DNA of 40,000 nt from Deltaproteobacteria bacterium. Lineage in GTDB: Bacteria; Desulfobacterota; Desulfobulbia; Desulfobulbales; Desulfocapsaceae. The translations under genes were made by a program, and so were the position numbers. The DNA lies in NCBI GenBank assembly GCA_031441605.1, contig JANNQF010000062.1, forward strand, positions 157,287 to 197,286. The letters are read 5' to 3'. Below, piece by piece: positions 12,886 to 27,938 of the stretch; within the stretch, counting starts at the first letter, position 1; each line of letters begins with the position of its first letter. The notes beneath the pieces were generated by a model. That model saw nothing but the letters and a program-made list of their open reading frames with translations, did not search any database and had not been told where the DNA came from.

Positions 12886-12941
12886 CGTGACTGTATTTCT
12901 GGGTATAACATATTGAGTTAAAACCAGAAAAATGCTTTAAT

Positions 12942-12980
12942 GGGGCCGGTTACGTAGTTGAGTAACGGCCCCTTTTTTTT
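12942..12980 (+). terminator. Rho-independent terminator after ppaC
   Basis: GGGGCCGGTTAC (12942-12953) pairs with GTAACGGCCCC (12962-12972) with one bulged G and an 8-nt loop. It is followed by T8 (12973-12980) and lies ~57 nt after the ppaC stop, between convergent ppaC and tlyA. Confidence 0.8.
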
Positions 12981-12990
12981 AGACTTGCGG

Positions 12991-13731
12991 CTAAGAGGAT
13001 GGACGGGAGGTAATCAAGACGAGGAACTCTTGATTACCTTTGGGGCCGAGAATAGGTGAGGGAACAACTCCATTGCTGATTAAATCTAATTTTTCAACAC
13101 ATTCGAGTATTTTTCTGATGGCTTTTTGATGCATGGCAGGGTGCGTCACTATTCCGCCAGCGCCCACCTCGTCCCATGGGAGTTCAAATTGTGGCTTGAT
13201 GAGGGCAAGAATCTTAACCGTCTGGCTGAACAGGCATACCAGAGGGGGAAGGAGGGTGGTGATCGATATAAACGATACATCCATAACCACCAAGTCAATC
13301 TCTTCCTGATTGATATCTTTGCTTGAAATGTTACGAGCGTTAAAGCGCTCTAAGACAACAACTTTCGCGTTTTGTCGGATTTTCCAGGATAATTGCCCGT
13401 AAGCAACGTCTATAGCATAAACTTTGCGGGCATTATGTCGGAGAAGGCAGTCGGTAAACCCTCCTGTGGATGCACCAATGTCTATGCAGGTCCAATTTTC
13501 AGGATCAATATTGAAATGGCTAAGACCCTTTTCCAACTTGAGGCCACCTCGGGAAACATATGGGCAACGCTCCTTTAAACGGATACTAGCTGTGCTGTGA
13601 TATAAAAAACCGGGCTTGTCGGCTATCCGATCATCCACAAGCACCTGTCCGGCACCAATCATCCCCCTAGCCGTTTCAAGAGATGGTGCCAGGTTGCTAT
13701 CGCATAAGAGTTGGTCGAGACGGACCTTCAA
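12991..13731 (-). CDS. tlyA: TlyA family rRNA 2'-O-ribose methyltransferase (hemolysin A-like)
   Basis: It has an N-terminal S4-like segment (MKVRLDQLL...ARGMIGAGQVLVDD). VSRGGLKLEKGL and the SAM-binding DIGASTGGFTDCLL..ARKVYAIDVAYGQL and DVSFIS follow. Confidence 0.88.
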   Translation of the reverse strand: MKVRLDQLLCDSNLAPSLETARGMIGAGQVLVDDRIADKPGFLYHSTASIRLKERCPYVSRGGLKLEKGLSHFNIDPENWTCIDIGASTGGFTDCLLRHNARKVYAIDVAYGQLSWKIRQNAKVVVLERFNARNISSKDINQEEIDLVVMDVSFISITTLLPPLVCLFSQTVKILALIKPQFELPWDEVGAGGIVTHPAMHQKAIRKILECVEKLDLISNGVVPSPILGPKGNQEFLVLITSRPSS

Positions 13732-13752
13732 GATTGTATCTTTGATGGGAAA

Positions 13753-14802
13753 CTAGAGTTTGCCAAGACGTTCCTGGGCTGTGCTTGCTTCCCGAGAAGA
13801 GCCATGTTTTTTCAGGAGTTTTTTGTAAATCACCTTAGCAGTCTCTTTGTCTGCAAGTTTTTCAAATGCCATACCCTGTTTAAGCATGGCCGAAGGTGCT
13901 TTATCATGTCCGGAAGATTGTGAAATGATTTTTTGGTACTGCATGATAGCCTTATCATATTCTTTTTGGTTAAAGAGACATTCCCCCATCATATATCTGG
14001 CTTCTACGGCATCGCTTGAAGATGAATTTCCGGCTATCTGTTCAAATATCGGGAGCGCCTCTGCGTAGCTGTTCTTTTCAAACAACTTTTGCGCCTTTTT
14101 CATGTTGTTGTCGGCTGGTTCACCCATTGCAGGGGGTGAGGGTTGTGTCGATTTATCTTTAACTGCAGTTGGTGCAGCCTGTTTAGTTACAGTTTCTGTG
14201 CCTTCTGTGGTCTCATGGGTTGCAGCATCCTTTTTTTCCTTTTTCTTGTCAACCGGGACTTGCTTGCTGCTCCCTTCAGATTGAGCAGCAGGACTAGAGG
14301 TTTGCGTTTTTTTCTTAGCGAGCTCAGCCATGAGAGCGGTCTCTTTTGCCTTGCGCTCTGCTTCTTTGAGGCGAGCTTCTTGAATGGCTTTTACGCTTTC
14401 CTGCTGCTGGTTCATTTTTTCTGCAAGCTTAGCTTCTTTATCGCGTTGTGCCTCCTCGAAGCGACGCATAGCCTCTTCTCGTTTTGCTGCTTCCGCTTGG
14501 GCTACATTGGAAATGGACGCTTCCAATTCTTTGTTTTGATCTTTAAGCTTCTGATTGATGTGGTGGGTTTCATCGAGTTGTCCCTTAAGCTCAAGAATTT
14601 CTTTTTCAAACTGATCCATTTGTCCAGACGCTGCCGCCTGTTTCTTCTGCAATGGGACCGTTGTAGATTTCATGTCCTCAAGCTTTTTATTGACGATGCG
14701 CAATTGATAGCGAAGTTCTTCTACGTCGTTTTGTGATGCACATTGCACGAGAAAAGGAACTACTGCTGTAATAAAAAGGATGTTAATAACAAATTTCTTC
14801 AT
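13753..14802 (-). CDS. cpoB: CpoB/YbgF-like Tol-Pal associated protein, predicted lipoprotein with an extended K/E/A-rich coiled coil and a C-terminal TPR domain
   Basis: It sits directly downstream of tolB. The signal peptide has a lipobox-like LVQC. A long coiled-coil follows (ELKGQLDETHHINQKLKDQNKELE...EEAQRDKEAKLAEK...), then a low-complexity linker. The YbgF-type TPR end is ...KAQKLFEKNSYAEALPIFEQI...ARYMMGECLFNQKEYDKAIMQYQKII...KAPSAMLKQGMAFEKLADKETAKVIYKKLLKKH. Confidence 0.75.
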   Translation of the reverse strand: MKKFVINILFITAVVPFLVQCASQNDVEELRYQLRIVNKKLEDMKSTTVPLQKKQAAASGQMDQFEKEILELKGQLDETHHINQKLKDQNKELEASISNVAQAEAAKREEAMRRFEEAQRDKEAKLAEKMNQQQESVKAIQEARLKEAERKAKETALMAELAKKKTQTSSPAAQSEGSSKQVPVDKKKEKKDAATHETTEGTETVTKQAAPTAVKDKSTQPSPPAMGEPADNNMKKAQKLFEKNSYAEALPIFEQIAGNSSSSDAVEARYMMGECLFNQKEYDKAIMQYQKIISQSSGHDKAPSAMLKQGMAFEKLADKETAKVIYKKLLKKHGSSREASTAQERLGKL

Positions 14803-14840
14803 AGCTTATAGCCTGTTTAAAAAATAATGTCGGCGGTATC

Positions 14841-16139
14841 TTACCGCGACCATTGAGGATATGTTTGGCTGCCGGGGAAGTTGAAAAGTTTCCGTTCGAA
14901 AGAACCGCTTTTCATTATACCGTAAATAGCCTGTTTATTGCCATCACGTTTTGCAAAGATAACTTGATTCCCGTCCGGCGACCAGCTTGGTGCTTCATGG
15001 TGACTCAGATCGTGGGTCAGCTGTTTGGGAGCCGCCCCGGTTTGTGGATTCATGGTAAATAACTGGTAAACACCTTCACGAAGACTCGAATACACGATGA
15101 GGTTTTCCGTTGGCGACCAACTCGGCTCGGCATTCTCGGTGCCTTCAAATGTTAACCGTCGAACATTTCTCGTTCGCATATCTAAAGAAAATAATTGTGG
15201 TTTTCCTGTTCTATCTGAGACAAAGACGACAGTGGATCCGTCGGGAGACCAGGCAGGTGACACATTAATGCCCGAACGATTAGTCAATTGTTCAATTATC
15301 TCGCCTTTTCTGTCAAGAAGATAAAGGTCGGGATTACCATCCTTCGAGAGCGTTAGAATCATACTTTCGCCGTCGGCTGACCAGGAAGGGGCAAGGTTTA
15401 AGCCTTTTCTCCGGGAAAGAGCCTGGGTCGTCTTATCTTGACGGAGGTCGGTGATATACAGGTTTTGATTGCCGCTGTGGTATGAGGTGTAGGACAAGAA
15501 TGTTCCACCGGGGAGAAATCTTGGAGAGACAGTGAGGTGTTTGTGGCGCGTAATCTGTCTGGAATTTTTCCCCAAAATGTCAGTAAGATATACTTCTTTT
15601 ATGGTATTATCTCTATTAACAAAAGCTATTTGCGTGGCGGCTATTCCTGGTTTACCGGTTAATGACTCAATAACACTGTCACAGAATTTAAACAGCATTT
15701 GGTTCTTTTGATCCATACTGCCGGAGAACGTTTTTCCCATTACGACTTCGTCTCCAGCCGCATCCTGTAACCTCATTTCCAGTTTCAGGACTTCCCCGGA
15801 AATAACATATTGTCCTAAAACAGTGTAGTCGGCACCGAGTCGTTTCCAATCCGCCGATTGAGTATCCCCATATTTCTCGGCAGGGAGTATGGCAATGATG
15901 CCGTGGAACTGTAGAGCTTGGCCGACAATATCCGCCATATCCTTACTGAGATTCTGTCTTTGGTCATTGAGGCTTTTGTTTTGAAACGATGGTACAGCAA
16001 TATTGATCTTGCGAATCTCGGGGGCGGAGATGTCGAGATATACACGGTCTGCAGCGAACGAGCCGTAGACCAAGCATAAGAGGATATAAACAGTGAGTGA
16101 AGATATTAACGACAATTTTTTAAGCATGGGTTTTATCAT
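14841..16139 (-). CDS. tolB: Tol-Pal system beta-propeller protein TolB
   Basis: A signal peptide is followed by the TolB N-domain (RVYLDISAPEIRKINIAVPSF). Repeated propeller blades then carry P.WSPDG motifs (APSWSADG, SPAWSPDGS, EPSWSP, APSWSPDGN). The gene lies after tolQRA. Confidence 0.92.
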   Translation of the reverse strand: MIKPMLKKLSLISSLTVYILLCLVYGSFAADRVYLDISAPEIRKINIAVPSFQNKSLNDQRQNLSKDMADIVGQALQFHGIIAILPAEKYGDTQSADWKRLGADYTVLGQYVISGEVLKLEMRLQDAAGDEVVMGKTFSGSMDQKNQMLFKFCDSVIESLTGKPGIAATQIAFVNRDNTIKEVYLTDILGKNSRQITRHKHLTVSPRFLPGGTFLSYTSYHSGNQNLYITDLRQDKTTQALSRRKGLNLAPSWSADGESMILTLSKDGNPDLYLLDRKGEIIEQLTNRSGINVSPAWSPDGSTVVFVSDRTGKPQLFSLDMRTRNVRRLTFEGTENAEPSWSPTENLIVYSSLREGVYQLFTMNPQTGAAPKQLTHDLSHHEAPSWSPDGNQVIFAKRDGNKQAIYGIMKSGSFERKLFNFPGSQTYPQWSR

Positions 16140-16165
16140 AGCGGTTATAGAAGTATTGGACGTTG

Positions 16166-17101
16166 TTATTGAATGCTTCCCGGTTTGAAACGAACACCTA
16201 CCTCATACCGCTGCTTTTTCAAGGCCGGTGGAATAGGCGGCAGAGGATTGGCCTTCTCAATGGTCTTGCTGACATACTGATCAAATATCGGATCTCCCGA
16301 TTTACTTTCAAAAACCATATTGGCAATATCGCCATCAATCTTGATGGTAATTACCACAATCGACGTCAAGTTCGGATCCTTTTGCAAATTCTCAGGAATT
16401 GACCAGAATTGTTGAAGTCGATTGGCAATAGCCGCGTTATATTGATTTTCAAGGAGTGTGTTACTCCCGCCTACGGCCTGGGCTGGAGCGTTGGTTTGCG
16501 GTCCCACAGCTGATTCAGTGCTTTGCGCCATCCGACCTTTATTGCTTTGAGTAAGAACGCGCCGTTCCTGTTCCAAGGCTTCCTGGGCTATTCGAGCTCT
16601 CTCCGTTAAGACCGATTCTTCTCTGAGGGCTTCTGCCAGTTTTTGAACTTTTTTCAGATCTTGGTCATTTTTCTTTGGTGGAACTTCCTGTTCTTTAACC
16701 TCTTTAATCTCTTTAATGATCTTTTGTTTGAGTGGCTTAAGCGAGATGGCTTTTGGCGGAGCGGGTGTCGGCACAGGCTCAGGTTCAGCTTTTGGTGGAA
16801 TCTCGGCAATCGGCACTTCCTTTTTGGCCTTCGGCGGAGCCGCGGCAGGAGGGGGCGGTGCAGATTCCTGTACCTTTGCCGGAGAAGGCGCTTGGGGTTT
16901 GGCCGAAGATGGCGCCGTAACCGGTTCAGCAATATTCACGAGACTCACCGTGTAAATGTCTGCAAACTTCGGTTTTGCTTTAAAAAAACCAGGAAGATAC
17001 AACGCCGCCAAGACGATCATGACGTGTATTCCAATGGCGAAATTTAATGGAAGTTTCCATTCGTTCGGCAGCATAGAAACTTCTTGGTAAGTGTGGCCCA
17101 C
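16166..17101 (-). CDS. tolA: TolA-like protein (TM anchor, Pro/Lys/Glu-rich spacer, TolA/TonB-type C-terminal domain)
   Basis: It has an N-terminal TM helix (LNFAIGIHVMIVLAALYLPGFF) and a proline-rich tract (PAPSPAKVQESAPPPPAAAPPKAKK...PEPVPTPAPPKA). A K/E helix follows, then a C-terminal domain ending ...EKANPLPPIPPALKKQRYEVGVRFKPG. The gene lies between tolR and tolB. The start could be GTG 17101 or ATG 17074. Confidence 0.7.
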   Translation of the reverse strand: MGHTYQEVSMLPNEWKLPLNFAIGIHVMIVLAALYLPGFFKAKPKFADIYTVSLVNIAEPVTAPSSAKPQAPSPAKVQESAPPPPAAAPPKAKKEVPIAEIPPKAEPEPVPTPAPPKAISLKPLKQKIIKEIKEVKEQEVPPKKNDQDLKKVQKLAEALREESVLTERARIAQEALEQERRVLTQSNKGRMAQSTESAVGPQTNAPAQAVGGSNTLLENQYNAAIANRLQQFWSIPENLQKDPNLTSIVVITIKIDGDIANMVFESKSGDPIFDQYVSKTIEKANPLPPIPPALKKQRYEVGVRFKPGSIQ

Positions 17102-17105
17102 TCTT

Positions 17106-17525
17106 CTACTCTTTCTCAGGAGGTACGGTGGGCATACCTAATTTATCGAAACCGGCTAACTTTATGTCGCCCATCACCTTAACAACGTCCCCGTATGGAA
17201 GACTTTTATCGGCATGCAAAAGAATCAGCTGATCCTTGCTCACTGCTGAATAGCGCTTTTTCAGTTCCTGGACCAAGAGAGCCTTGGTCGTGGGAACTTT
17301 ATCAATGCTTATTGTCCCACTTTTTTCCATGGTTACATTGATCCGATTGTCTTCTTGTCTTAGAGATTTTGCCGTAACTTCAGGAAGATCAACATTTAAC
17401 CCCTGGGTCATCATTGGTGCTGTTATCATAAAGATAATAAGCAGCACCAACATAACATCGACCAGAGGGGTGACATTAATATCCGCTACCAATTTTTTTC
17501 TGCCGCTGCCGTTTGTTGGTCCCAT
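17106..17525 (-). CDS. tolR: Biopolymer transport protein TolR (ExbD/TolR family)
   Basis: ADINVTPLVDVMLVLLIIFMITAPMM...LNVDLP is the ExbD/TolR signature. It is 139 aa and lies between tolQ and tolA. Confidence 0.88.
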   Translation of the reverse strand: MGPTNGSGRKKLVADINVTPLVDVMLVLLIIFMITAPMMTQGLNVDLPEVTAKSLRQEDNRINVTMEKSGTISIDKVPTTKALLVQELKKRYSAVSKDQLILLHADKSLPYGDVVKVMGDIKLAGFDKLGMPTVPPEKE

Positions 17526-17531
17526 GGTATT

Positions 17532-18233
17532 TTATACCCTGCTCAACAGATCTCTTTCCACCAGATTCAGGAAGTCTGTAGAGAAATTGGATACTTGTCC
17601 ATCAACGAGGTCGAGTTTATTAGAAAAGTAGTTGTAAAAAATAACAGCAGGGATAGCCACGGCAAGACCGGCGGCGGTGGCTATTAAGGCCTCCGAGATA
17701 CCCGGAGCGACGACGGCGAGCGATGCTGATCCGCGTTGTCCGATATCATGGAATGAGGCCATAATTCCCCAGACTGTGCCAAAAAGACCTATAAATGGAG
17801 TGGCGCTCCCCGTGGTTGCGAGAAAAGGCAGATTGCTGCCAAGTTGGCTCAGTTTTTGCGATTCTGCCTTTTTAACCGCACGTTTCAAATTATCCATAGT
17901 GGCGAGCTGCATTTCCAAAGTTTCGTTGCCTCGGCTATCATCTTTCCGATTACGAATTTTATTGATTTTTTGCAGTTCATTGAATCCAGCTATGAAAACT
18001 GAGGCCTGAGGGCTGTATGCATATTCTGCTGCAGCGGTATTGGCTTCATTAAGATTGGCTGAATTCCAAAAAGACTCCAGGAAATCTTCAGAGTCGAGGC
18101 GAACTTTCTTGAAAAGGCGAGCCTTCATTATGACAATAGTCCACGAAGCAAGGGAAAAAATGAGAAGGGTAAGCATGACCAGCTGGCCGACCGGGCCGGC
18201 ATGGGTAACCATATCGAGAATTGATAACTGCAC
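17532..18233 (-). CDS. tolQ: Tol-Pal system protein TolQ (MotA/TolQ/ExbB proton channel)
   Basis: MQLSILDMV....LVMLTLLIFSLASWTIVIMKARLF aligns with E. coli TolQ ([39 protein letters not shown]). The C-terminal LPFLATTGSATPFIGLFGTVWGIM...APGISEALIATAAGL is the family core. The start is GTG, with AGGA 7 nt upstream. Confidence 0.9.
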   Translation of the reverse strand: MQLSILDMVTHAGPVGQLVMLTLLIFSLASWTIVIMKARLFKKVRLDSEDFLESFWNSANLNEANTAAAEYAYSPQASVFIAGFNELQKINKIRNRKDDSRGNETLEMQLATMDNLKRAVKKAESQKLSQLGSNLPFLATTGSATPFIGLFGTVWGIMASFHDIGQRGSASLAVVAPGISEALIATAAGLAVAIPAVIFYNYFSNKLDLVDGQVSNFSTDFLNLVERDLLSRV

Positions 18234-18354
18234 GGAGAGATCCTTCTTTAATCAATGCAACCGCGCTGTTGAAGGCGGTCGTTCATGACCCGGTTTAACT
18301 CGGTTATTTGATGGCTTAAATGGTTGTTGCTGTGTAAACATTTTCAAAGCTGGT

Positions 18355-18382
18355 ATCTTACCTGCTTTTCTTAAAAATTCAA
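18355..18382 (-). promoter_or_regulatory. Candidate sigma70-type promoter for the tol operon
   Basis: On the minus strand: TTGAAT (18382-18377), a 16-nt spacer, then TAAGAT (18360-18355). It lies ~120 nt upstream of the tolQ GTG. This is a hexamer match only. Confidence 0.3.
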
Positions 18383-18445
18383 CCGGACAATGAGAACCTC
18401 TTGAATATTTGCCGGAGAGGGTTTTTATCGCTTAAAGAGATGAGA

Positions 18446-18889
18446 TCAGGGAGGGGGCTTTACCATGGCACAGACAAAATCGACTACGACTGCAATTTTT
18501 TCTGAAACCTTCAAGGTACCCTGGAAAAAACAGGCGTTTGCGAGAGTCTCGGTTAAAGTGACTTTAATTTGAACGGTATCTCCAGGAACAACCGGCTTTT
18601 TGAATTTAGCTCCGCCAATTCTCGTTATGACCGGGATTTTTGATTTTTCTTGTGAGAGAGTAAGACTTCTCTTGGCCATGAGGAGAGCACCGCTCTGAAA
18701 AATCGCTTCGCAGAGGATGACACCAGGCATGATAGGATTTCCAGGATAGTGACCATGGAAGATGTCCAGGTCTCGGGGAATATCCTTTTCTGTTATTATC
18801 CAACTTTCGGCACAGGCGATGATTCTGTCGACCCAAAGAAAGGGAGGGCGATGAGGAATAAGGGCAAATATTTCTTTGAGCTGCTGCAT
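18446..18889 (-). CDS. FabZ-family 3-hydroxyacyl-ACP dehydratase (hotdog fold), cluster-specific paralog
   Basis: IPHRPPFLWVDRI...FHGHYPGNPIMPGVILCEAIFQSGALLM matches the FabZ signature (LPHRYPFLLVDR...F.GHFP..P.MPGVL..EA.AQ). Both the catalytic His and the Glu are present. The start is 2 nt after the FabG-like stop. Confidence 0.85.
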   Translation of the reverse strand: MQQLKEIFALIPHRPPFLWVDRIIACAESWIITEKDIPRDLDIFHGHYPGNPIMPGVILCEAIFQSGALLMAKRSLTLSQEKSKIPVITRIGGAKFKKPVVPGDTVQIKVTLTETLANACFFQGTLKVSEKIAVVVDFVCAMVKPPP

Positions 18890-18891
18890 GA

Positions 18892-19632
18892 TTAGATGCC
18901 ACCGCTTACTTCAAGCACGGTCCCGCTGATATAGTCTGCTTTATTGCTCGCGAGAAAAAGCACGGCGTTGGCTACTTCATCAGGGGTTCCAAATCTTCGC
19001 ATGGGAACCATTTTTTTGTATTCGGCGAGCAGATGTTGATCAAGACTTGCAATAAAATCAGTAGATATAAAACCCGGAGAAACACAATTGACGGTGATAT
19101 TTTTTCTGGCAACCTCTTTTGCCAGGGTTTTAGTGAGGGCCAGCTGGCCGGCTTTTGATGCGGCATAATTAGCTTGACCTGAAAAGCCAAGGTGGGCAAC
19201 AGGTGAGGTTATGTTAATAATTTTTCCGTATTTGTGCCTCATCATCAACAAAACAGCTTGTTTGGCCATAAGGTAGGTGCCGGTGAGGTTGGTGTTCAGT
19301 ACATCTTGCCATTGATTGTAACTCATCATCGCAAGCATGGCATCTTTGCGAATACCGGCATTATTTACGAGGATATCAAGAGATTGATATTTTTCGTTAA
19401 TCCATGAGAACAAGGAGGCAACCTGTTGTTCGTCGGATACATTGCACTGCAGAAGTTCAAAGTAACCGGCAAAGTGACTATTTTCATCGGCAAAGACCCG
19501 TGCGGCGTCCTTGTTTCCAGCATACACACCGATAATATGGGCACCTGCTTCAAGAAAATGTCTGGCAATTGCTTTTCCAATTCCTCGTGTTGCGCCACTT
19601 ATGAGTACTACCCTGTCTTTGAATTCATTCAT
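18892..19632 (-). CDS. FabG-like 3-oxoacyl-ACP reductase (classical SDR)
   Basis: Carries GATRGIGKAIA (TGxxxGxG), NNAG, the catalytic Ser (ITSPVA) and YAASKAG (YxxxK). The C-terminal FLASNKADYISGTVLEVSGG is typical of FabG. The start is 9 nt after the upstream flavoprotein stop. Confidence 0.85.
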   Translation of the reverse strand: MNEFKDRVVLISGATRGIGKAIARHFLEAGAHIIGVYAGNKDAARVFADENSHFAGYFELLQCNVSDEQQVASLFSWINEKYQSLDILVNNAGIRKDAMLAMMSYNQWQDVLNTNLTGTYLMAKQAVLLMMRHKYGKIINITSPVAHLGFSGQANYAASKAGQLALTKTLAKEVARKNITVNCVSPGFISTDFIASLDQHLLAEYKKMVPMRRFGTPDEVANAVLFLASNKADYISGTVLEVSGGI

Positions 19633-19641
19633 GATGCACCT

Positions 19642-21045
19642 TCATGACCGCAGAAAACTATCGACATCATTAGATACGATAACTCCATAGTTGATAGCCC
19701 CTAGCCAACCGGACATGATAATTCCGACCGATCCCACATGGAACAATCCTGGGATTTCTTTAAAAATAGAACGAGAAATGTTCAATCCCTCAAATTTAGT
19801 CCCAAAAGATGTGCCCTTGGTGTGGAGAGTATAGCTGTTGAAAGTTCTTGGGGTTGCCGCTTCCATCCAATCAATTTTTTCTTTGACTCCGGGAATATAG
19901 CGTTGAAGATCGGTGAGAGTCCTGTCGATCAGAAACTGTTTTTCCTTCTGATAGCTGGTTTCTTCAAGGTACGCCCAGTCTTCATAACGGCTATTCATTG
20001 AGGCAACGATGGTGTATCGGTTTTGGTCAGGACGGGTCTTTGGGTAGTAAAGTGAAAAAGTCTTTGAGTTTGAATGCTTGTTGAGTAACTCCTCAGAGTC
20101 GAATTCAGGGGCGGAGGAGGTGAAAAGAAGGTCGCCGACATCATCGATTGTTTCCATCTCTTTGATGCCGAAATAAACCTGACAGCTTGAATTGTTGACC
20201 CTGATTTTATCTGCCTTTTCAAGAAAATCATCGGAATAGGCATCACGATCGGTAAGATTGCTGATCGTGTTGGTTATTCCGCTATTGGAAACTACCGCTT
20301 TTGCGGCGATGGTTTTACCTAATACCTCGACACCTCTAACCCGACCCTTTTCAATGATTATTTTATCTACTTTTGAATTGGTGCAGATTGTTACTCCGTT
20401 TTTCTCCAATTCCTCAGTCATAAGTCCAATCAGTTTGTCCGTGCCACCTTCAAAGGTATAAACACCTTTGTTCATAAAGTTTGAGAAAACAATACCATAA
20501 GTAATTGCAGGATCATCTAGGGTAGAGCCGTTGGCATAGGTTATCGGTTCCATGAGGAGTCGATGAACATCGGATCTCCCCGGGAAAAAATCGTTAAACA
20601 GATCCCTGGTAGTCATCGTCTGATCATCATAAAAATTCATGTTGGCGACCACCGTGAAGAATCGTTGAATAGTCTTTTCAGGAATCTTGAAGTGAGATTG
20701 GAGCAATCTGGTAAAATCTTCTTTGTCAAAGGTCGTGCGCAAGGAAAATTGTGGATTATCGAAGACAATATTCTTGAGTTGCACGATTGAACTCATTATT
20801 GTTTGGTTCCAATATTTTTTACAGGTTTTGAGCATGCCGTAGGGAAAACCGTGTAAGGAAACATCGAAAATATGGCCGCGACGTTTGAACCAGGTGGCGA
20901 GCCCACCAAGCCGGTGATGATACTCTAAAAGGAGAACTTTATGCCCGCAATAGGCCAGACGGTTGGCGGTAGTTAACCCGCCAAGTCCGGAACCAACGAC
21001 TATCACATCATATCGATCGGCAAGTTGAGAAAAGGAGACAGGCAT
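19642..21045 (-). CDS. FAD/NAD(P)-binding oxidoreductase, phytoene desaturase (CrtI)/amine-oxidase superfamily, copy 2
   Basis: The N-terminal dinucleotide fold is [42 protein letters not shown]. It is ~470 aa long, with a C-terminal ...[24 protein letters not shown] typical of COG1233-type enzymes. It is a paralog of the upstream gene. Confidence 0.75.
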
Positions 21046-21173
21046 AGGGTGGCAAATTGAGAGTTACGAATTATTTACAATTATTTAGATTCTTGCAGCT
21101 TAGATCTCAGAGAGTATCTCAGTTTGCAATGACGAATCCCAATACGCTTCAAGGCATCATACTCTGATGGGAA

Positions 21174-22592
21174 TTAGAGTTTAGGCAGGATGTGCTGATT
21201 GACGATCGAAACTCCGCTGAGCATGGACCCGATAATGCCCAAAAAACCTTGATCGGTACCGGCAAGAAAGAGATTAGGGTAGCCGATATTGCCATCTTTG
21301 ACCTTTTCCGGGCTGCCATAGATTGCTCCGTTTATCTTTGCGGTATAGCGCTCAATGGTAACGGGGGTGAAGGTGTTTTCATATACAATATTTGTCGCAA
21401 AACTGCCAACCAAATTCTCCAACATTTGTGCGGAGCGGCGGGAGGTATCGAGTTTTTGGCGGGAATATTGATCCGGTGTTACCGAAAGATGTTTCCATTT
21501 CTCATAGTTGGCCAAGTGGGTAGAACGAACCTCCGTTATATTCTTTCTGGGAAGGTTTTGAAAGTTTGCCGGAAAACAAAATACACCACTCCTGAAATCG
21601 GCGAAATCCTCAGGGTTTTTATAGGAAAACATCTTCCCGTCGTTAAAAAAAATAATGGTTTTATCTTCGGGGAGGTTAGGTGATGATTGTTGTAACTGGT
21701 ATATGGTTTCGACAAATCCCAGTCTCACGAGTTGAGTCGAAGACGATACTCCTGTGCTCGACATGAGCATAAGTGTTTCCTGGTGGCCGATGGTTGAGAG
21801 GATATGGTCACATTCCATTATCTCTCCGTCGTCGAGTTCCACTCCGATAACCTTATTCTGTCTGACAAGGATTTTCTTTACCGGGCAGCTTTTCCTCAGG
21901 CTTCCGCCCAATTCAAGGTAATGTGAGATTAAAAGATCAAGAAGATCTTTAACAGTGCCCTGGGGACGAAACATGCCTTCCAGGAAAATAGCTTTGAACA
22001 TTATGACAAACTGACTGAGATCCATGTCATCCTCACGGCTCGAACCATAAAACATGAGCGGACAGAGTATCATCTCAGCAAGGAGCGGAGCTTGGAGTGT
22101 TTCCTCAAGAAAATATCTGGCAGAGCGAAAGGGAGAAGGGAGGAAAGGGTTAAAATCCTTTATGGTCTGAAGCATTTTTTGAAATCTGACAGCAGCACGT
22201 GGAAATTTTTTTTGCACTTCTGAGTTTAACTGATCAATATCGTTAGAAAATGTCAATGACTCAAAATGGCGGAAAATAACCTCACTTTTCATCTGCTGAC
22301 AAAAGGAAAAATCATTTCGCCGCAGTTTCAACTGCCGGAGTAGCCTGTTTATTGGAGCTTGTTTGTCTCCGGGTTCGGCGTAGTTGGTGATAGCATGCAG
22401 ACCGGTCTCATAGAGAGTGTTGTTTCGATAAAAATATGAGTTGAGTCCGCCTAGTCGGGAGTGTTTTTCAACTAAAAGAACATCGGGGATGAACCGTGCT
22501 GCTCGAATGGCAGCGGCCAGTCCGGACAGACCGCCACCAATGACCAGAAGGGGGGTTCTCACAACATTAGGGACCGTTAAGAAATGGCCCAT
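21174..22592 (-). CDS. FAD/NAD(P)-binding oxidoreductase, phytoene desaturase (CrtI)/amine-oxidase superfamily, copy 1
   Basis: Carries PLLVIGGGLSGLAAAIRAARFIPDVLLVEKHSRLGGLNSYF (GxGxxG ... E ... RLGG) and the C-terminal ...YPNLFLAGTDQGFLGIIGSMLSG. The length and overall layout match the neighbouring paralog. Confidence 0.75.
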   Translation of the reverse strand: MGHFLTVPNVVRTPLLVIGGGLSGLAAAIRAARFIPDVLLVEKHSRLGGLNSYFYRNNTLYETGLHAITNYAEPGDKQAPINRLLRQLKLRRNDFSFCQQMKSEVIFRHFESLTFSNDIDQLNSEVQKKFPRAAVRFQKMLQTIKDFNPFLPSPFRSARYFLEETLQAPLLAEMILCPLMFYGSSREDDMDLSQFVIMFKAIFLEGMFRPQGTVKDLLDLLISHYLELGGSLRKSCPVKKILVRQNKVIGVELDDGEIMECDHILSTIGHQETLMLMSSTGVSSSTQLVRLGFVETIYQLQQSSPNLPEDKTIIFFNDGKMFSYKNPEDFADFRSGVFCFPANFQNLPRKNITEVRSTHLANYEKWKHLSVTPDQYSRQKLDTSRRSAQMLENLVGSFATNIVYENTFTPVTIERYTAKINGAIYGSPEKVKDGNIGYPNLFLAGTDQGFLGIIGSMLSGVSIVNQHILPKL

Positions 22593-22668
22593 ATTTTTTA
22601 TCCATTTCTTTACGGACCCTTATGCCGTTAATGAAATTGAAATGCATGATTTAATTTTGAACGACGGC

Positions 22669-22920
22669 TTAGGCGTCTTTTAACAAAGGTTGGAGGTAGC
22701 TTGCGCAACTGTTGAGTGTGGCGAGATGGGGATAATCTTCTTCGGGAATTTGAAGCTTGTGCCGCTTCCGCAGTTCCATTACGATATCAAGGAAATCCAT
22801 GGAATCGAGTTCCAGTTGATCACGTAACGGCTTGTCGGGGTCGAGACTTTCGAAGTCTGCCTCATCGTCTATGTCTTTTATGATTTCCAGAATCAGATTT
22901 TTTATATCTTCACTTGTCAT
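22669..22920 (-). CDS. Acyl carrier protein (stand-alone phosphopantetheine-binding protein, non-AcpP type)
   Basis: An 83-aa acidic helical protein with the attachment motif LELDSMDFLDIVMEL (DSxD/FxxxV, Ser as the phosphopantetheine site). A GGAGAG RBS is present. Confidence 0.8.
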   Translation of the reverse strand: MTSEDIKNLILEIIKDIDDEADFESLDPDKPLRDQLELDSMDFLDIVMELRKRHKLQIPEEDYPHLATLNSCASYLQPLLKDA

Positions 22921-23077
22921 GAAACTCTCCGGATGTGACGGCTGATAGAAAAAAAATTCAAATTATTAATATCCCTCTGATGGCAGGGAGTATTCATTTG
23001 AGCATTGGCAAAACACTTCCTATAACATACCAAAGCAATCTTGTTGATACTTATTTGTAGTAATAAATTAAAAAAAC

Positions 23078-24313
23078 TTAGCCCACGTATTTTTTCACAA
23101 TGACCGTCGAATTAATACCGACCATGCCAAAGGAGTTGTTTAAAAGTATATCAATGGGTTGAGCTTGTATGGCCTCGTTGATCACCAGATTGTTGACTGC
23201 ACATTCAGGGTCGAGATTTTCAATATTAATTGTCGGGTGGACAATTCCATCGGTAAAAGACGGTAAATTGCCGGCCAGTTCAAGAACGCCGGCCGCGCCC
23301 ATCGCATGTCCGATGATGCTTTTTGTATTATTGACATACGTTGATGGACAATCACTGAAAACCTCCGCAATAGCCTTACACTCTTCGATATCGCCCTGCT
23401 TGGTGCCCGTTGCGTGGGTATTGATCAGATGGACATCTGCTGGTTGGAGATGCGCACGATGCAGGGCAAGACGCATGCATTCAGCCTGTCGCTTGCCATA
23501 AGGCAGGACAAAATCCTTGGCATCGGAGTTCATGGCATAACCGACGATTTCGCCGTAGATATGGGCTCCCCGGGCAACAGCCTTCTCCAGGTGCTCCATG
23601 ACATACACACAGCCACCCTCAGAGATAACAATACCGTTTCTGTCACGATCGAAGGGCCTGGAGGCTTTTCTCGGATCACTCGCTTCACCGAGGGCACCTT
23701 GGGCTTTGAAACTGGCAAAGATGCCGAAAGAACCAACAGATTCTGAAATTCCACCGGCTAACGCCATGTCGACTTCATCTAACTTCAACATCTGAACGGC
23801 TTGAATAAGGGAAGCGTTGCCTGCGGCACAGGCAGCACCGATAACGTAGTGCGGCCCGGTTATCCCGAGATTCATGGTAATTTCGCCGGCCGGGTTATTG
23901 AGAACGGTTCGAGGATTGTGATGATGCGTCCAATAATTAACATCGTACTGGTACTTGCTGATATTGTAGACCTCATTTTCAGTCTCAACTGTGCCATGTT
24001 CGGTTAAGCCAATGTATACACCGATTCGTGAAGGATCGTAATCGTGGATATCGAGTTTGCCATCCCTTAGTGCCTCGTTGGCACAATAAACTCCAAGGCA
24101 TCCTGCACGAGTTCCTTTTTTATTTTCCTTTTTCTTGCGATAAAGAGTTTCGGGAAAGGTACATATACCTGCCGGAGCCTTGCCGAAATAGCGGAGTTCG
24201 ATCTCCCGAATTTCACTTACACCATTTATGAGTTTTTGCCTAAATTCCAGGAGATTGGAAGCATTGGGTGCGGCTAGCCCGATCCCGGTTATGACTATTC
24301 TGCTGTTTTGCAT
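23078..24313 (-). CDS. Beta-ketoacyl-ACP synthase, FabB/FabF-like (elongating KAS, Cys-His-His triad)
   Basis: Begins RIVITGIGLAAPN. The active-site Cys is in GPHYVIGAACAAGNASL, the first His in LINTHATGT and the second His in KSIIGHAMGAAG. It is 411 aa. Confidence 0.9.
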   Translation of the reverse strand: MQNSRIVITGIGLAAPNASNLLEFRQKLINGVSEIREIELRYFGKAPAGICTFPETLYRKKKENKKGTRAGCLGVYCANEALRDGKLDIHDYDPSRIGVYIGLTEHGTVETENEVYNISKYQYDVNYWTHHHNPRTVLNNPAGEITMNLGITGPHYVIGAACAAGNASLIQAVQMLKLDEVDMALAGGISESVGSFGIFASFKAQGALGEASDPRKASRPFDRDRNGIVISEGGCVYVMEHLEKAVARGAHIYGEIVGYAMNSDAKDFVLPYGKRQAECMRLALHRAHLQPADVHLINTHATGTKQGDIEECKAIAEVFSDCPSTYVNNTKSIIGHAMGAAGVLELAGNLPSFTDGIVHPTINIENLDPECAVNNLVINEAIQAQPIDILLNNSFGMVGINSTVIVKKYVG

Positions 24314-24491
24314 GGGAGATGTTGTTTCCTCGGGGGTGATTAAAGAAATCTTATGTTGCCGATGGCCTCAGATCTCAAATGGCATAAATTGAGCTATTTT
24401 CAAATAATACATGGAGATAATATTCGTTTGAATATTTAGAGTAATTTGCCCAAAAACTCAATCATTATGCAGCCAATATCTGATATTATTG

Positions 24492-25253
24492 CTAATACAT
24501 GAACTTAGGTCTCTTCCGATGACTGGTTCTTCCGGCGAGCATACCAAATAAGAAAACTGCAGCACCGGCTGCAAACCATAAAAATCGAGTTTGGTCCTCT
24601 TTCTGGGATATGGTCTTTTGAAGCTCCGAAATCTGCTTGCCTCGTTTATCGTACTCTGAGATGAGCAATGCAAAATTTTCGGGAGTTTGTTCCAACTGGT
24701 CGGTCGACACGGGGTTCTCGTCAACCAAAGATTCAGAAATTTTAGATGAAGGTTCTGACGGTTGATGCTGTTGCGCTTTAAGCTCTTCCTGCAGCCGGGC
24801 AATGATTTTTTCGGCATCGCTCAGCTTGAGCTGGATCTCCTGGCAAGAGAGGTCACTGGAGAGTTTGTCCCCTTTTGCTATATCAGGAGTAGTAGCGGCT
24901 GGTAAGGTGAGCTGAGCTTTAAGGTCGGAGACTTCTTCTTTGAGCTGGTTTATTACAAGTGTTTTAGGGATCTCGTTTTTCAGATAATGTTTACCAATCC
25001 AACCCTGCTTACCTTCGGCGGTCACAATTTTAAGGAAATTACCACTCTCTTCGACAATTTGGACAGGATCGTCGGATTGGACAGTTGCTACAACTTCATA
25101 GGGTTTTTCAAGGCGATCTTTAATGTTGATGACAAGGAGATCAGAGATGTAACGAACATTATTTTGATCAGAACGTGAGGCAGCAAATTGGGGAAACATT
25201 TGTAGCACACTGAATAGGATGCAAAATAACGAGATGCTATGTGTTTTGAACAT
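24492..25253 (-). CDS. SH3 domain membrane protein, YgiM/TIGR04211-like (signal peptide, SH3, coiled coil, C-terminal TM anchor)
   Basis: The signal peptide is MFKTHSISLFCILFSVLQMF..A. An SH3b-like segment follows (VRYISDLLVINIKDRLEKPYEVVATVQSDDPVQIVEESGNFLKIVTAEGKQGWIGKHYL). Then come a long coiled coil and a C-terminal helix FLWFAAGAAVFLFGMLAG followed by basic residues. Confidence 0.75.
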   Translation of the reverse strand: MFKTHSISLFCILFSVLQMFPQFAASRSDQNNVRYISDLLVINIKDRLEKPYEVVATVQSDDPVQIVEESGNFLKIVTAEGKQGWIGKHYLKNEIPKTLVINQLKEEVSDLKAQLTLPAATTPDIAKGDKLSSDLSCQEIQLKLSDAEKIIARLQEELKAQQHQPSEPSSKISESLVDENPVSTDQLEQTPENFALLISEYDKRGKQISELQKTISQKEDQTRFLWFAAGAAVFLFGMLAGRTSHRKRPKFMY

Positions 25254-25276
25254 ATTTTTTCTCCAGCTGTTACTGT

Positions 25277-25291
25277 TGGCGTGCAGTGTGC
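25277..25291. promoter_or_regulatory. Sigma54-like -24/-12 element, readable on both strands
   Basis: On the plus strand TGGCGTG-CAGT-GTGCC compares with the consensus TGGCACG-N4-TTGCW (GG and GC at the correct spacing). Its reverse complement, GGCACACTGCACGCC, also gives GGCAC...GC. It lies between the divergent SH3 gene and the HEAT-PilZ gene. Motif match only. Confidence 0.25.
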
Positions 25292-25583
25292 CGGTCTACC
25301 GGGAATTATTCCCCATTTTGTGATCCTTAAATAAAAAACACTGACCGGCAATTATTGTGATTTGTATACAAGTTTCCGGGTCTTGTGTCAAACATCAGTG
25401 GCTGTAAATCGATATGCAGGTGTCTGAGACAATTTGAGAGTACGAAAAAATCTTCTTGACAAACCCGTGATATAAATTTGTAACTGGAAAATAAAATATT
25501 ATATTAGTGGGTTATTAAGTGTGCCGAATGGAAAGTGAGAAGTTCGATGAGGTGTTTTCCGATGTTCTTGATAGGACTGTCTG

Positions 25584-27938
25584 ATGGTAAATAAATTGGG
25601 ACCAGAAAGCGATGTCGTTGAAAAAATCCAACAAAGCATCTCTCTGTCGGAAGAAAAGAGAAGGCAACAGCGCCTCGCGCATAATTTGACTAAACTTGCG
25701 CAAGGTAATTTTCAGATTCTCAATAATGATGAATTTATTCGAGGGTTAGTTGAATATCTCGTGGGGCATGGTGAGGAAGACCTCGATCTTAAAAGAAAAA
25801 TTTTGATAAGTCTCGGAGAATCGGTAATTATCGAAGATAGAAATATCAGAGAAAGGACACTCACAGTTTTGTCTTTGGTTGGAGAACATTTTCTCCGGTG
25901 CAGCGATAACGGTGGCATTCTCCTTGTTGTTCATAGTTTCTGTAGGTGGCTGGAGCATGAAAATGAAATGTTGCCCGGCCTGGTGGTGGTCATTAAAAGG
26001 ATGGAAGAGCTGACTTTGTGGCTCTTGGAAAAATCTTTTTGGAAAGAAGGTGAGAAAGTTCTTGCCCTGTTTCACCGTATTCAAAATGGCGGTAATGAAA
26101 AGGGTACAGCATTTCGGAGCTTTGTTTCGCAAAATCTCGATAAATTTGCTTCAAAAGCAACCCTTAAGCATTTGACTGACGGCTACCTTCTTGGAGATAG
26201 TCGTCAACCGCTCTTTCAAAGTATTCTACTTTTCTTTGAAGATCGTGCCGCAACGTATCTCTTTGACAAGGTTATTCAGAGTCACAGCAGAAATGAACGC
26301 TTAGCGTTGATTCATCTGATCCCCATGTTTGGTTCAAAGGTTCTGCCTATTCTTGAGAGATGCTTGAAAAACAATCCACCATGGGCGGTAGTTAGAAATG
26401 TTCTCTGCATTCTGTCGGAAATTGGCGATGACACCTGTTATACATTTATAAAGCAGTATTTTCGGCATGAAGATAAGCGAGTGCAGTATGAGATGATCGG
26501 TTGTGTTGTGAAATTCGGTGGCTCAGAATTAAAAAATAGATTGTTGACTGGTCTTGAAATCGTAAATGACGAATTAAAAGTGCATATTATTCAGCTTCTT
26601 GTCGCACATGCACCACGGGATGAAGCGGTATTGGTCGGGCTATTTGGCTTTGTCGAAGGGAGTGACAATTTCTCGCCACGTTCTAAGAATAAACTTATTG
26701 GTGCCGTCATAGCCGCTCTGAAAACCTTTCCTTCCATTAAAAGCATTGAAATCCTGCGTAACCTGCAATTTATGTGCAGCCGGTCCCAAGGAAGTGAACT
26801 GCTGCTGCTCCAGATTCAAGAGGCTTTGAGATCTTTAGCACCACAACTGCGGCATCAACTACAACGTTGTGAAGAAACATCTGAGACGGTTTCCTATGAT
26901 AGTGATCCACAACAGATGCAGAAAGAGCTTACAAGATTTGAGGAGATAGAAGAAAACCTCCGTAAATTGGTGCGAGTTGGTGACATGAGCGGTGCCGGGC
27001 GACTTCTTCACGAACAGGCTCTCTTTGCAGCACGATCCAAGGAATTCTTTTTGGCGGAGAAGTTGCGGGACAGGTTGTTGGAAATTAATCCCATGGCTCT
27101 TGCCGAGGCAGTTGCACTCGGGGATTTGATCGAAGGAGAAAAAACCTCATCCCACACCCGTCATCATCTTGGTGTTTGGAGTGAACTCTATGAGGAAATG
27201 ACCACTGAAGAATTTAATACACTCTATTCTGTTCTACGATTGGAAGAATATCGGAAAAATGACACTATTGTGCGAACGGGTGAAACCGATGATGTTCTTT
27301 ATTTCCTCAGTTCAGGTTACGTGAGTCTCAATTGTTTGTCCGGAGGCAATGAGAGTTTTCTGAAACGTATGGGCCCCGGCAGCATTTTAGGGGGGGGGGA
27401 ATTTTTCTCGGCTTCAGTTTGGACAGTTACCCTTAAAGCCCTCTCCGATGTGCATCTTCAGGTTCTTGATCACAAAATATTTTTAAAGATTGCCGATGAA
27501 TTCCCAGGGATCGAGGAAAAGCTGCGGCAATATTGCTGTAAATATGCGGAGGTGCCGGCGCTGCTGAAGATGTCCGGGGATGATCGACGGGAATACCCAC
27601 GTTTTTCTCTGACACTTTTTACCCAAAACGTGCTCTTTGACCCCTACGGCAATAAGGGGAAAAGGAGTTTTAGGGGTGAATTGGTTGATATTTCTCGCAA
27701 TGGTTTGGCATTTATTGTCAAAGTCTCCACTCGAGATAATGCCAAATTGATGCTTGGCAGGCAGATTGTTTCGGAAATTAGGGGCATTGGAGATGACGTA
27801 GTAACCGAATGCAGTGGAATTATCGTGGGTGTAAAATATCACAATGTAATCGCAAAAGATTTTACTGTACACGTCAAGCTTTCACAAAAAATCGAAGACG
27901 CCGCCTTCTCAAAAATCATTGGCCTGGGACGAGTGTGA
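25584..27938 (+). CDS. Multidomain signalling protein: N-terminal HEAT/armadillo-like repeats, cyclic-nucleotide-binding-like domain, C-terminal PilZ (c-di-GMP receptor) domain
   Basis: About 440 aa of repetitive helical sequence come first (e.g. RNERLALIHLIPMFGSKVLPILERCLKNNPPWAVVRNVLCILSEIGDD, HEAT-like). A coiled region follows, then a CNB-like beta-roll (EEYRKNDTIVRTGETDDVLYFLSSGYVSLNC...GPGSILGGGEFF). The PilZ domain has both c-di-GMP motifs: RREYPR (RxxxR) and DISRNG (DxSxxG). Confidence 0.7.
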   Translation: MVNKLGPESDVVEKIQQSISLSEEKRRQQRLAHNLTKLAQGNFQILNNDEFIRGLVEYLVGHGEEDLDLKRKILISLGESVIIEDRNIRERTLTVLSLVGEHFLRCSDNGGILLVVHSFCRWLEHENEMLPGLVVVIKRMEELTLWLLEKSFWKEGEKVLALFHRIQNGGNEKGTAFRSFVSQNLDKFASKATLKHLTDGYLLGDSRQPLFQSILLFFEDRAATYLFDKVIQSHSRNERLALIHLIPMFGSKVLPILERCLKNNPPWAVVRNVLCILSEIGDDTCYTFIKQYFRHEDKRVQYEMIGCVVKFGGSELKNRLLTGLEIVNDELKVHIIQLLVAHAPRDEAVLVGLFGFVEGSDNFSPRSKNKLIGAVIAALKTFPSIKSIEILRNLQFMCSRSQGSELLLLQIQEALRSLAPQLRHQLQRCEETSETVSYDSDPQQMQKELTRFEEIEENLRKLVRVGDMSGAGRLLHEQALFAARSKEFFLAEKLRDRLLEINPMALAEAVALGDLIEGEKTSSHTRHHLGVWSELYEEMTTEEFNTLYSVLRLEEYRKNDTIVRTGETDDVLYFLSSGYVSLNCLSGGNESFLKRMGPGSILGGGEFFSASVWTVTLKALSDVHLQVLDHKIFLKIADEFPGIEEKLRQYCCKYAEVPALLKMSGDDRREYPRFSLTLFTQNVLFDPYGNKGKRSFRGELVDISRNGLAFIVKVSTRDNAKLMLGRQIVSEIRGIGDDVVTECSGIIVGVKYHNVIAKDFTVHVKLSQKIEDAAFSKIIGLGRV
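27390..27399 (+). repeat. Homopolymeric G10 tract inside the HEAT-cNMP-PilZ coding sequence
   Basis: TTA GGG GGG GGG GAA encodes L-G-G-G-E. Ten consecutive G were read directly from the sequence. Confidence 0.95.

Follow-up and report, generated by a model that had tools for sequence, protein, structure and literature searches.

In Shewanella, the Pfa synthase is needed for synthesis of the hydrocarbon C31:9, and a 16:4 chain is believed to pass straight from the acyl carrier protein (ACP) domains of PfaA to OleA (PMC6463001). The Pfa and OleABCD proteins combine dedicated ketosynthase (KS), ACP, ketoreductase (KR), dehydratase (DH) and enoyl reductase (ER) functions, set apart from the fatty acid synthase of type II (FAS II) and genomically linked to the ole genes, with the O2-free production of a special unsaturated chain that OleA receives from a private carrier (PMC6463001, PMC3098273). 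Here, we describe a six-gene cluster that resembles this arrangement, located within a 40-kb stretch of contig JANNQF010000062.1 (hereafter the window) from a member of the Desulfocapsaceae, order Desulfobulbales (assembly GCA_031441605.1). The cluster encodes a β-ketoacyl-ACP synthase (KAS), a dedicated ACP, two flavoproteins (FL1 and FL2), a FabG-like ketoreductase and a FabZ-like dehydratase, and in related genomes its genes are physically joined to oleABCD. On balance, we favor the view that this module works independently of Pfa, as a dissociated source of the (poly)unsaturated acyl-ACP from which OleABCD would make head-to-head olefins.

The module differs from Pfa in its architecture. 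Pfa is built as a megasynthase of several domains that include tandem ACPs, a pairing of KS and chain-length factor (CLF), FabA-type dehydratase/isomerase domains and an FMN-type enoyl reductase (PfaD), whereas the module consists of discrete, single-domain proteins, possesses a FabZ-type dehydratase (His/Glu) and no CLF, and includes two CrtI-fold flavoproteins that are absent from Pfa; the PfaA model TIGR02813 yields 85 bits against a cut-off of 1010. To our knowledge, all known anaerobic pathways to unsaturated fatty acids (UFAs) rely on an enzyme that diverts a double bond together with a dedicated ketosynthase. The module resembles FabA/FabB, FabM/FabF, FabN/FabO and FabX in pairing a (here putative) double-bond enzyme with an elongating ketosynthase that is dedicated to it and uses acyl-ACP. 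FabX, however, is an FMN/[4Fe-4S] protein with the nitronate-monooxygenase fold and FL1 and FL2 are FAD proteins with the CrtI/amine-oxidase fold, such that the likeness lies in proposed function only, and none of the known anaerobic UFA modules has an ACP of its own or is linked to ole genes. With CrtI, CrtD, phytoene desaturase (PDS) and CrtISO, FL1 and FL2 have in common the fold and the N-terminal FAD site, and the substrates of CrtI-type enzymes are long hydrophobic polyenes, but the structural identity is 14-18%, no crtB, crtE or crtM gene lies near the module, and the partners within the module are a KS and an ACP. Aryl-polyene (APE) and flexirubin clusters likewise contain a discrete KS, an ACP, a FabG-like KR and a FabZ/ApeI-like DH with no core ER. 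APE loci, however, are without flavoproteins and ole linkage, and the module is without a CLF, an adenylation enzyme, an acyl- or glycosyltransferase and LolA/MMPL.

The candidate ladderane clusters of anammox bacteria (kuste3603-3608 and kuste3335-3352) also place genes for ACP, FabF and FabZ beside phytoene-desaturase-like flavoproteins, as the initial annotation of the window had correctly indicated, and Rattray et al. (2009) proposed that such FAS II loci of Desulfotalea psychrophila and Kuenenia constitute a novel anaerobic route to polyunsaturated fatty acids (PUFAs) (PMC2649909). The existence of such loci and the general idea are already published; the 2009 proposal is older than the Ole pathway and does not set the six-gene unit apart. 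In the literature that we searched, with subscription journals largely outside it, no paper delimits the module, the core trio KAS-ACP-FL1 or the fusion with oleABCD, and no characterized system of this composition was found. The anammox clusters additionally contain radical-SAM enzymes and non-canonical KS partners, whereas the window has neither a radical-SAM gene nor a second KS. Two of the anammox flavoproteins, Kuste3336 and Kuste3607, fail to complement CrtI (PMC4790861). Since their identity to FL1 and FL2 (23-26%) is the same as that to CrtI, orthology was rejected, and the anammox phytoene desaturases are regarded as analogues.

Conservation of the module and its linkage to ole genes

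A scan of one genome per species revealed FL1 relatives in at least 592 species genomes, and the best 80 of these all belong to the Desulfobulbales; FL1 homologues with 60-98% identity derive from Desulfobulbales that include Desulforhopalus and Desulfotalea. The order KAS-ACP-FL1-FL2-FabG-FabZ is kept in all 80 Desulfobulbales loci (in three of them FabZ fell below the detection threshold). Amino acid identity to the window ranges from 45 to 97% over the six genes, with 73-95% for KAS, 70-97% for ACP, 72-94% for FL2 and 48-83% for FL1, FL2 being far better conserved than FL1. This recurrence in the same order places the cluster well beyond chance, and the retention of order and identity indicates that the six genes form a co-conserved, strongly constrained unit. 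The initial annotation had made its interpretation depend on such co-conservation.

The module also extends well outside this order. In an exhaustive search of 1.84 billion representatives, the FL1 family comprised 189 representative clusters at E<=1e-30, whose named members come from the Bacteriovoracaceae, 'Deltaproteobacteria' and Auribacterota. The core trio KAS-ACP-FL1 persists in distant lineages of 35-68% GC content, where identity to the window is 55-73% for KAS and 54-84% for ACP and only 29-48% for FL1. The ACP gene is always placed between those for KAS and FL1, and a comparison over all lineages gave 65-97% identity for its product. The trio is usually accompanied by FL2 and FabZ, sometimes by FabG, and often by a divergent FabI-like reductase. 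Metagenomes were scanned with a pattern that represents a generic FAD motif only, and 34 of the resulting 80 loci are true family members.

In these relatives, the module is repeatedly joined to the genes for olefin synthesis. Ole genes abut the module in 13 of the 18 informative loci that are not linked to tol genes, and these loci derive from unrelated lineages. The arrangement in locus L085 is KAS-ACP-FL1-FL2-SDR-DH-FabI-like-OleA-OleB-OleC-OleD, where SDR denotes a short-chain dehydrogenase/reductase; L086 has the same order without FabG, L087 is reduced to KAS-ACP-FL1-OleABCD and L083 to KAS-ACP-FL1-OleBCD. Among the metagenome loci, OleA lies immediately upstream of KAS in L091, L092 and L114, OleC/OleD immediately upstream of the module in L093, L095 and L124, and OleA(B) downstream of it in L105 and L106. 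The Ole assignments rest on PRK09258 for OleA (412-444 bits, cut-off 285), on PRK09274 for OleC (653 bits, cut-off 478, with olefin β-lactone synthetase models next at 576 and 528 bits) and, for OleD, on a best NCBIfam match to 2-alkyl-3-oxoalkanoate reductase (345-388 bits); OleB is a haloalkane-dehalogenase-like hydrolase. A divergent FabI-like SDR stands beside both FL1 and FL2 in seven variants (L085, L086, L091, L093, L105, L106 and L171). The minimal variants, KAS-ACP-FL1-Ole, are without KR and DH as well, and borrowing from FAS II is therefore the rule.

The linkage is also present within the Desulfobulbales, although it is not visible from the window alone. A metagenome-assembled genome (MAG) of the Desulfobulbaceae (L171, GCA_013335025.1), counted among the 13 loci above, contains module and ole genes in a same-strand array of 11 genes, with the order KAS-ACP-FL1-FL2-FabZ-(multiheme cytochrome)-FabI-like-OleA-OleB-OleC-OleD. 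Its proteins are as close to those of the window (KAS 73%, FL2 70%, FabZ 57% and FL1 48% identity) as are those Tol-linked orthologues that have diverged further. Orthologues of the L086-type OleC were named from the Desulfobulbaceae, the Desulfurivibrionaceae and Candidatus Electronema. Elsewhere in the order, tolQ-tolR-tolA-tolB-cpoB-tlyA follows the module wherever the contig allows, and in one such Tol-linked locus (L089) an OleB-OleC-OleD-M48 block converges on tlyA. When the 80 loci were re-screened, 54 Tol-linked Desulfobulbales loci had at least 1 kb of sequence past tlyA, and the M48 gene of a convergent M48-OleD(-OleC-OleB) block was present there in 31; OleD was seen in all 16 Tol-linked loci whose flank runs past the M48 gene. 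Among cultured carriers, Desulfosediminicola flagellatus IMCC35005 (L021) combines the module with the oleD block, whereas in Desulforhopalus singaporensis and Desulfopila aestuarii no ole block adjoins the module.

Additional features of the relatives were noted in the course of this survey. In L089, a gene for an M48 peptidase with tetratricopeptide repeats (TPRs; 10621-12117) directly follows OleD and overlaps its stop codon, and in L171 a gene for a 598-residue TPR protein (12643-14439) occupies the same position with the same overlap, which suggests that a TPR-containing protein is an unrecognized fifth member of these ole operons. The multiheme c-type cytochrome gene of L171 (5606-6880), located between FabZ and the FabI-like gene, could encode an electron partner of the flavoproteins or be a mere insertion. 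L114 (866-7473) shows a tandem duplication on one metagenome contig, in which OleA-KAS-ACP precedes another OleA-KAS with FL1 after it. L107, a locus with KAS-ACP-FL1 and no ole gene, has an additional KAS that is divergent (33% identity) and a FabG-like gene, both some 5 kb downstream and encoded on the other strand (15803-18031). Two loci (L081, 3-2586; L082, 320-2735; Auribacterota MAG) encode an FL1-family member of 38-40% identity without KAS or ACP, and there a gene with an APP1_cat phosphatidate-phosphatase domain overlaps the start of the FL1-like gene. This arrangement hints that the FL1 family is also active in another lipid context.

Sequence features of the six proteins

The positions of the six genes are listed in Table 1. 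All six reading frames are present where they were originally placed, on one strand, and were assigned Pfam domains: ketoacyl-synt N and C for KAS (120 and 101 bits), PP-binding for ACP (35.5 bits), Amino_oxidase for FL1 and FL2 (64.3 and 54.5 bits, cut-off 19.8), adh_short_C2 for the FabG-like protein (219.6 bits) and the FabA-like family for the FabZ-like protein (73.5 bits). The catalytic motifs reported in the initial annotation are intact in the translations. KAS has the Cys-His-His triad (Cys in GAACAAG, His in NTHATGT and His in GHAMGAAG), ACP has the sequence LELDSMDFLD, the FabG-like protein has GATRGIG, NNAG, the catalytic Ser and YAASK (YxxxK), the FabZ-like protein has its His and Glu (HGHYPGNPIMPG...CEA), and both flavoproteins have an N-terminal GxGxxG. 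From KAS to FabZ, the intergenic gaps are 157, 76, 128, 9 (FL2-FabG) and 2 (FabG-FabZ) nucleotides (nt), the last two being those originally described.

Table 1. Positions of the six module genes and of the adjoining upstream region in the window
Feature	Position	Strand	Length and domain or remark
KAS, FabF-like elongating β-ketoacyl-ACP synthase	23078-24313	minus	411 aa; ketoacyl-synt N+C
ACP, dedicated carrier	22669-22920	minus	83 aa; PP-binding; DSM serine
FL1, CrtI/PDS-fold FAD flavoprotein	21174-22592	minus	472 aa; Amino_oxidase
FL2, second CrtI/PDS-fold FAD flavoprotein	19642-21045	minus	467 aa; Amino_oxidase
FabG-like SDR ketoreductase	18892-19632	minus	246 aa; adh_short_C2
FabZ-like hot-dog dehydratase	18446-18889	minus	147 aa; FabA-like Pfam
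Intergenic region 5' of KAS, possible promoter region	24314-24491	minus	178 nt; weak
aa, amino acids.

With the exception of one borderline FabZ model, no housekeeping or carotenoid equivalog cut-off is reached by any of the six proteins. KAS scores 307 bits against the fabF equivalog TIGR03150 (cut-off 493.75), ACP scores at most 35 bits against every AcpP model (cut-offs 66-84), and the FabG-like protein falls below both its equivalog TIGR01830 (279 versus 297.75 bits) and FlxB (246 versus 340 bits). The FabZ-like protein lies above NF000582 (116.1 versus 113 bits) and below TIGR01750 (116.6 versus 155 bits).

The absences originally noted extend to the whole 40-kb window, which contains no FabI/K/V, CLF, ammonia lyase, LolA/MMPL, acyltransferase or thioesterase gene, and it also contains no glycosyltransferase, exporter, crt, pfa or ole gene. 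The description of the cluster as self-contained did not hold, in that FabD, FabH, a phosphopantetheinyl transferase (PPTase) and an enoyl reductase are missing from it, and the cluster must therefore borrow from the housekeeping FAS II. Promoters and terminators were scanned for over positions 12500-25800, where matches were no more numerous than expected by chance and so do not show where the operon starts or ends. One sigma-70-like match lies 5' of KAS, at 24432-24404, where the number of matches equals the chance expectation, and Rfam and tRNA scans of the window, including this region, returned no match.

The two flavoproteins had been described as paralogues. They do belong to the same Amino_oxidase family and align over their full length (E = 2e-19), but at 23% identity they are paralogues only distantly. 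The carotenoid models score them far below their cut-offs: FL1 has 41 bits and FL2 has 94.5 bits against crtI_fam (TIGR02734; cut-off 238), 53 and 108 bits against CrtD (550), and 55 and 107 bits against CrtISO (587). The AlphaFold2 (AF2) model of FL1 is of high confidence (predicted local distance difference test, pLDDT, 94.2; predicted template modeling score, pTM, 0.93), and that of FL2, built from database homologues with a shallower alignment, is of moderate confidence (pLDDT 77.5, pTM 0.83). The best Foldseek matches of FL1 are 4REP, 4DGK, 3KA7 and 5MOG, at 15-17% identity, and that of FL2 is 4REP, with a template modeling (TM) score of 0.71; these structures are a CrtD-like desaturase (4REP), CrtI (4DGK), an uncharacterized archaeal protein (3KA7) and plant PDS (5MOG). 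Overall, the structural matches of the two proteins have 14-18% identity and TM scores of 0.55-0.72, in agreement with sequence searches of the Protein Data Bank. There is only one dinucleotide-binding motif in each flavoprotein, and an NAD(P)H domain is not obvious in either. FL1 and FL2 are thus CrtI-fold FAD proteins outside all carotenoid equivalogs.

There are no crtB/crtM-type synthases in the 40-kb window, and no crt synthases in the gene tables of 13 related loci with Pfam-annotated gene calls; the 80 Desulfobulbales loci and the metagenome loci were screened with module, Tol and Ole proteins only. With scores this low, no crt genes nearby and partners that are always a KS and an ACP, a carotenoid function was rejected, in accord with the earlier proposal of a specialized acyl-ACP pathway distinct from carotenogenesis. 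The constancy of these partners implies that the substrates of FL1 and FL2 are thioester-bound. A fusion of ACP with FL1 was sought in over-long representatives of the family (P0177, P0137, P0148 and others), in which Pfam finds flavoprotein domains alone, so that the extensions are probably mis-called starts.

A candidate pathway and competing explanations

Relatives place the genes of the module and oleABCD in one operon, and the cluster therefore most likely builds the unusual unsaturated chains from which anaerobic sulfate reducers form long polyunsaturated hydrocarbons. Because the module is fused to or neighbors oleABCD in these genomes, OleA is the likely off-loading enzyme that is missing from the window, and since OleA condenses two acyl chains no thioesterase is needed. 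The initial annotation's view that an off-loading enzyme is absent from the system itself is thus not supported, OleA being the natural condensing off-loader.

In the pathway that we propose, the private ACP would carry the growing chain, the FabF-like KAS would extend it, and the FabG-like and FabZ-like enzymes would process each β-keto group, while enoyl reduction, malonyl loading and priming would be borrowed from the housekeeping FAS II; in the fuller versions of the module, the dedicated divergent FabI-like enzyme would reduce the enoyl intermediate. FL1 and FL2 would create double bonds in the intermediates held by ACP or shift existing ones, as in the isomerization of trans-2 to cis-3 and of trans-2 to cis-2. 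FL1 and KAS may act as an 'isomerase plus dedicated ketosynthase' through which a cis-enoyl intermediate is diverted and then elongated, and FL2 may contribute a double-bond operation of another kind. Assembly of a skipped polyene, for instance 16:4n-3, in two-carbon steps would require repeats of 2,3-isomerization, 2,2-isomerization and one full reduction, a hypothetical pattern that would fit two distinct flavoproteins and an ER. The finished chain, most likely polyunsaturated, would be taken by OleA without release by a thioesterase, and OleBCD would convert the OleA product into a long head-to-head olefin. Channeling from a private ACP to OleA has a precedent in the transfer from the PfaA ACP domains of Shewanella. 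The CrtI/amine-oxidase superfamily includes redox-neutral double-bond isomerases, such as CrtISO and the polyenoic fatty-acid isomerase of Propionibacterium acnes.

A possible product is suggested by D. psychrophila, in which the hydrocarbons C31:8 (4%) and C31:9 (1%) make up 5% of the lipids, and whose genome has adjacent phytoene-dehydrogenase-like genes (DP2405 and DP2406) in a FAS II locus and no PUFA genes of the polyketide synthase type (PMC2649909). A genome-wide survey of pfa-like clusters does not list this organism but does list one such cluster for Geobacter, another producer of C31:9 (PMC3098273). The module is the best candidate for the synthesis of Desulfotalea-type C31:8/C31:9 without pfa. 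More specifically, and more tentatively, it may be a dissociated synthase of polyunsaturated chains in which the two CrtI-fold flavoproteins perform the cis-double-bond chemistry and OleA of strict anaerobes condenses the products to C31:8/C31:9.

Several observations weigh against the assignment of the module to olefin synthesis. Neither the 40-kb window nor its recovered flanks (about 3 kb on the left and 10 kb on the right) contain an ole gene, the window's own clade (L002-L017) is without the M48-oleDCB block after tlyA, and five well-flanked loci (L084, L088, L098, L107 and L112) have the module with no ole gene nearby. Because the module is universal and strongly conserved in the Desulfobulbales and occurs in these five ole-less loci, olefin synthesis may not be its only role. 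The Bdellovibrionota-type variants carry FL1 only, so that poly-unsaturation may be confined to some versions of the module. The orthology of DP2405/DP2406 to FL1/FL2 is only presumed, and a direct FL2 search with a query from a 'Desulfotalea sp.' MAG gave no D. psychrophila entry among its best 120 matches, which belong to Desulforhopalus, Desulfopila and Desulfosediminicola. Neither a fusion nor structural evidence connects FL1 with ACP. We infer the hand-over to OleA, the roles of FL1 and FL2 and, for every member of the family, the identity of the product; an isomerase or dehydrogenase-isomerase chemistry of the flavoproteins is a guess as to reaction type.

In a serious, if distinctly less probable, rival explanation, the module produces mono-unsaturated fatty acids for the membrane without O2 in place of FabA/FabB or FabX/FabF. 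FL1 would then make a cis-3-enoyl-ACP, KAS would elongate it, phospholipids would receive the products, and the linkage to Ole, which would use any acyl chains, would be secondary. The universal presence of the module and the strong purifying selection on it across the Desulfobulbales, also where no ole gene is nearby, speak for such a role, and the Desulfobulbaceae are known for the unusual fatty acids 16:1w5 and 17:1w6. Two fatty-acid isomers of D. psychrophila, one a C16:1 and the other a C18:1, have the same 13C signature as its hydrocarbons (PMC2649909). The minimal pair of KAS and flavoprotein moreover mirrors the known anaerobic UFA logic, for which FabX, reported as a flavoenzyme that makes a cis double bond on acyl-ACP without O2, is a precedent (PMC8626469). 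A private ACP, however, is needed in no known membrane UFA system, it is hard to see on these terms why operons that join the module to oleABCD recur in five or more unrelated lineages, and Xanthomonas-type Ole systems do without such a module. The idea put forward in the initial annotation, that FL1 and/or FL2 is an enoyl-ACP reductase (a RetSat-like 'saturase') completing a FAS cycle devoid of ER, has in its favor the lack of FabI/K/V in the window's cluster and the existence of saturases in the CrtI superfamily. We consider it improbable: seven related clusters hold both flavoproteins together with a dedicated FabI-like reductase, so that an ER replacement by the flavoproteins is not supported, each flavoprotein has the one dinucleotide-binding motif described above, and the minimal variants without KR and DH plainly borrow FAS II enzymes.

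A conjugated-polyene lipid or pigment of the aryl-polyene or flexirubin kind, formed by iteration of KS, KR and DH and tailored by the flavoproteins, appears very unlikely, even though KS, KR and DH without an ER yield polyenes by default, CrtI-type enzymes handle such substrates, and weak similarity to ApeI (E = 9e-4) accompanies that to FlxB. The CLF, adenylating starter enzyme, second ACP, LPLAT acyltransferase, glycosyltransferase and LolA/MMPL of such systems are missing from the window and were seen in none of about 130 module loci, the survey loci among these having been screened with the three protein sets named above; the recurrent partners are instead ole genes and a FabI-like reductase. 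The polyene lipid for the envelope suggested earlier is less likely than a hydrocarbon precursor, and of the earlier interpretation as a whole the specialized O2-independent double-bond pathway stands, whereas ER replacement, self-containment and the lack of off-loading do not. We give equally little credence to an envelope lipid tied to the Tol system, for which the module would be co-transcribed with tolQRAB-cpoB in the manner of ybgC upstream of tolQ in Escherichia coli. The tol genes invariably follow the module in the Desulfobulbales, and the 212-nt gap between FabZ and tolQ contains no terminator-like site. That gap is nevertheless wide in comparison with the gaps of 2-9 nt inside the unit, and tol genes adjoin the module in none of about 40 loci from other lineages, nor in the L086/L171 type of the Desulfobulbaceae. 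As the adjacency is limited to one order, a functional Tol linkage was rejected and, the gap also considered, the adjacency is treated as lineage-specific synteny. Carotenogenesis, with all carotenoid models far below cut-off and no crt genes nearby, has a negligible probability.

If the module does supply unsaturated chains to OleABCD, it would explain the 17-year-old puzzle of Desulfotalea-type C31:8/C31:9 made without a Pfa synthase, and it would define a widespread module, with an FL1 relative in at least 592 species genomes, that is also present in several other phyla. The phytoene-desaturase superfamily would be extended to thioester-bound fatty-acyl substrates. On the more tentative reading, the module would also be a third, convergent way to poly-unsaturate chains without O2, and that superfamily would gain a new class of reaction; there is a real chance, albeit short of an even one, of new enzymology for the CrtI superfamily. 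Such a result would bear on the role of these flavoproteins in the anammox ladderane clusters and could give engineers a compact means of making polyunsaturated chains or hydrocarbons independently of O2. Heterologous expression allows a direct test of the pathway, as its parts are small and discrete and natural operons of 7-11 genes exist.

Tol genes and other neighbors in the window

The rest of the window is of a housekeeping nature, with the Tol genes directly downstream of the module followed by purine genes, murJ, fusA, peptidase genes and others. The Tol region (12991-18233, minus strand) has the order tolQ-tolR-tolA(TonB_2)-tolB-cpoB-like TPR-tlyA/FtsJ; tolB and cpoB are 38 nt apart, with no pal/OmpA-like gene between them, and the same Tol order occurs across the Desulfobulbales. 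On the other side, a plus-strand gene (25584-27938) that is divergent from both an SH3-anchor gene and the module encodes a 784-residue protein with HEAT repeats, a cyclic-nucleotide-binding domain and a C-terminal PilZ domain, and its position is kept in the closest relatives. A minus-strand reading frame of 348 codons (10644-11690), with no Pfam or NCBIfam match, adjoins an SprA-related gene. At the left edge, a plus-strand reading frame of 516 codons (23-1573), with no Pfam match, seems to encode the C-terminal portion of a 943-residue protein. Finally, a plus-strand reading frame of 591 codons (2958-4733) encodes PurD (GARS N/A/C) fused to PurE (AIR carboxylase), and the same fusion is present in a related MAG contig.

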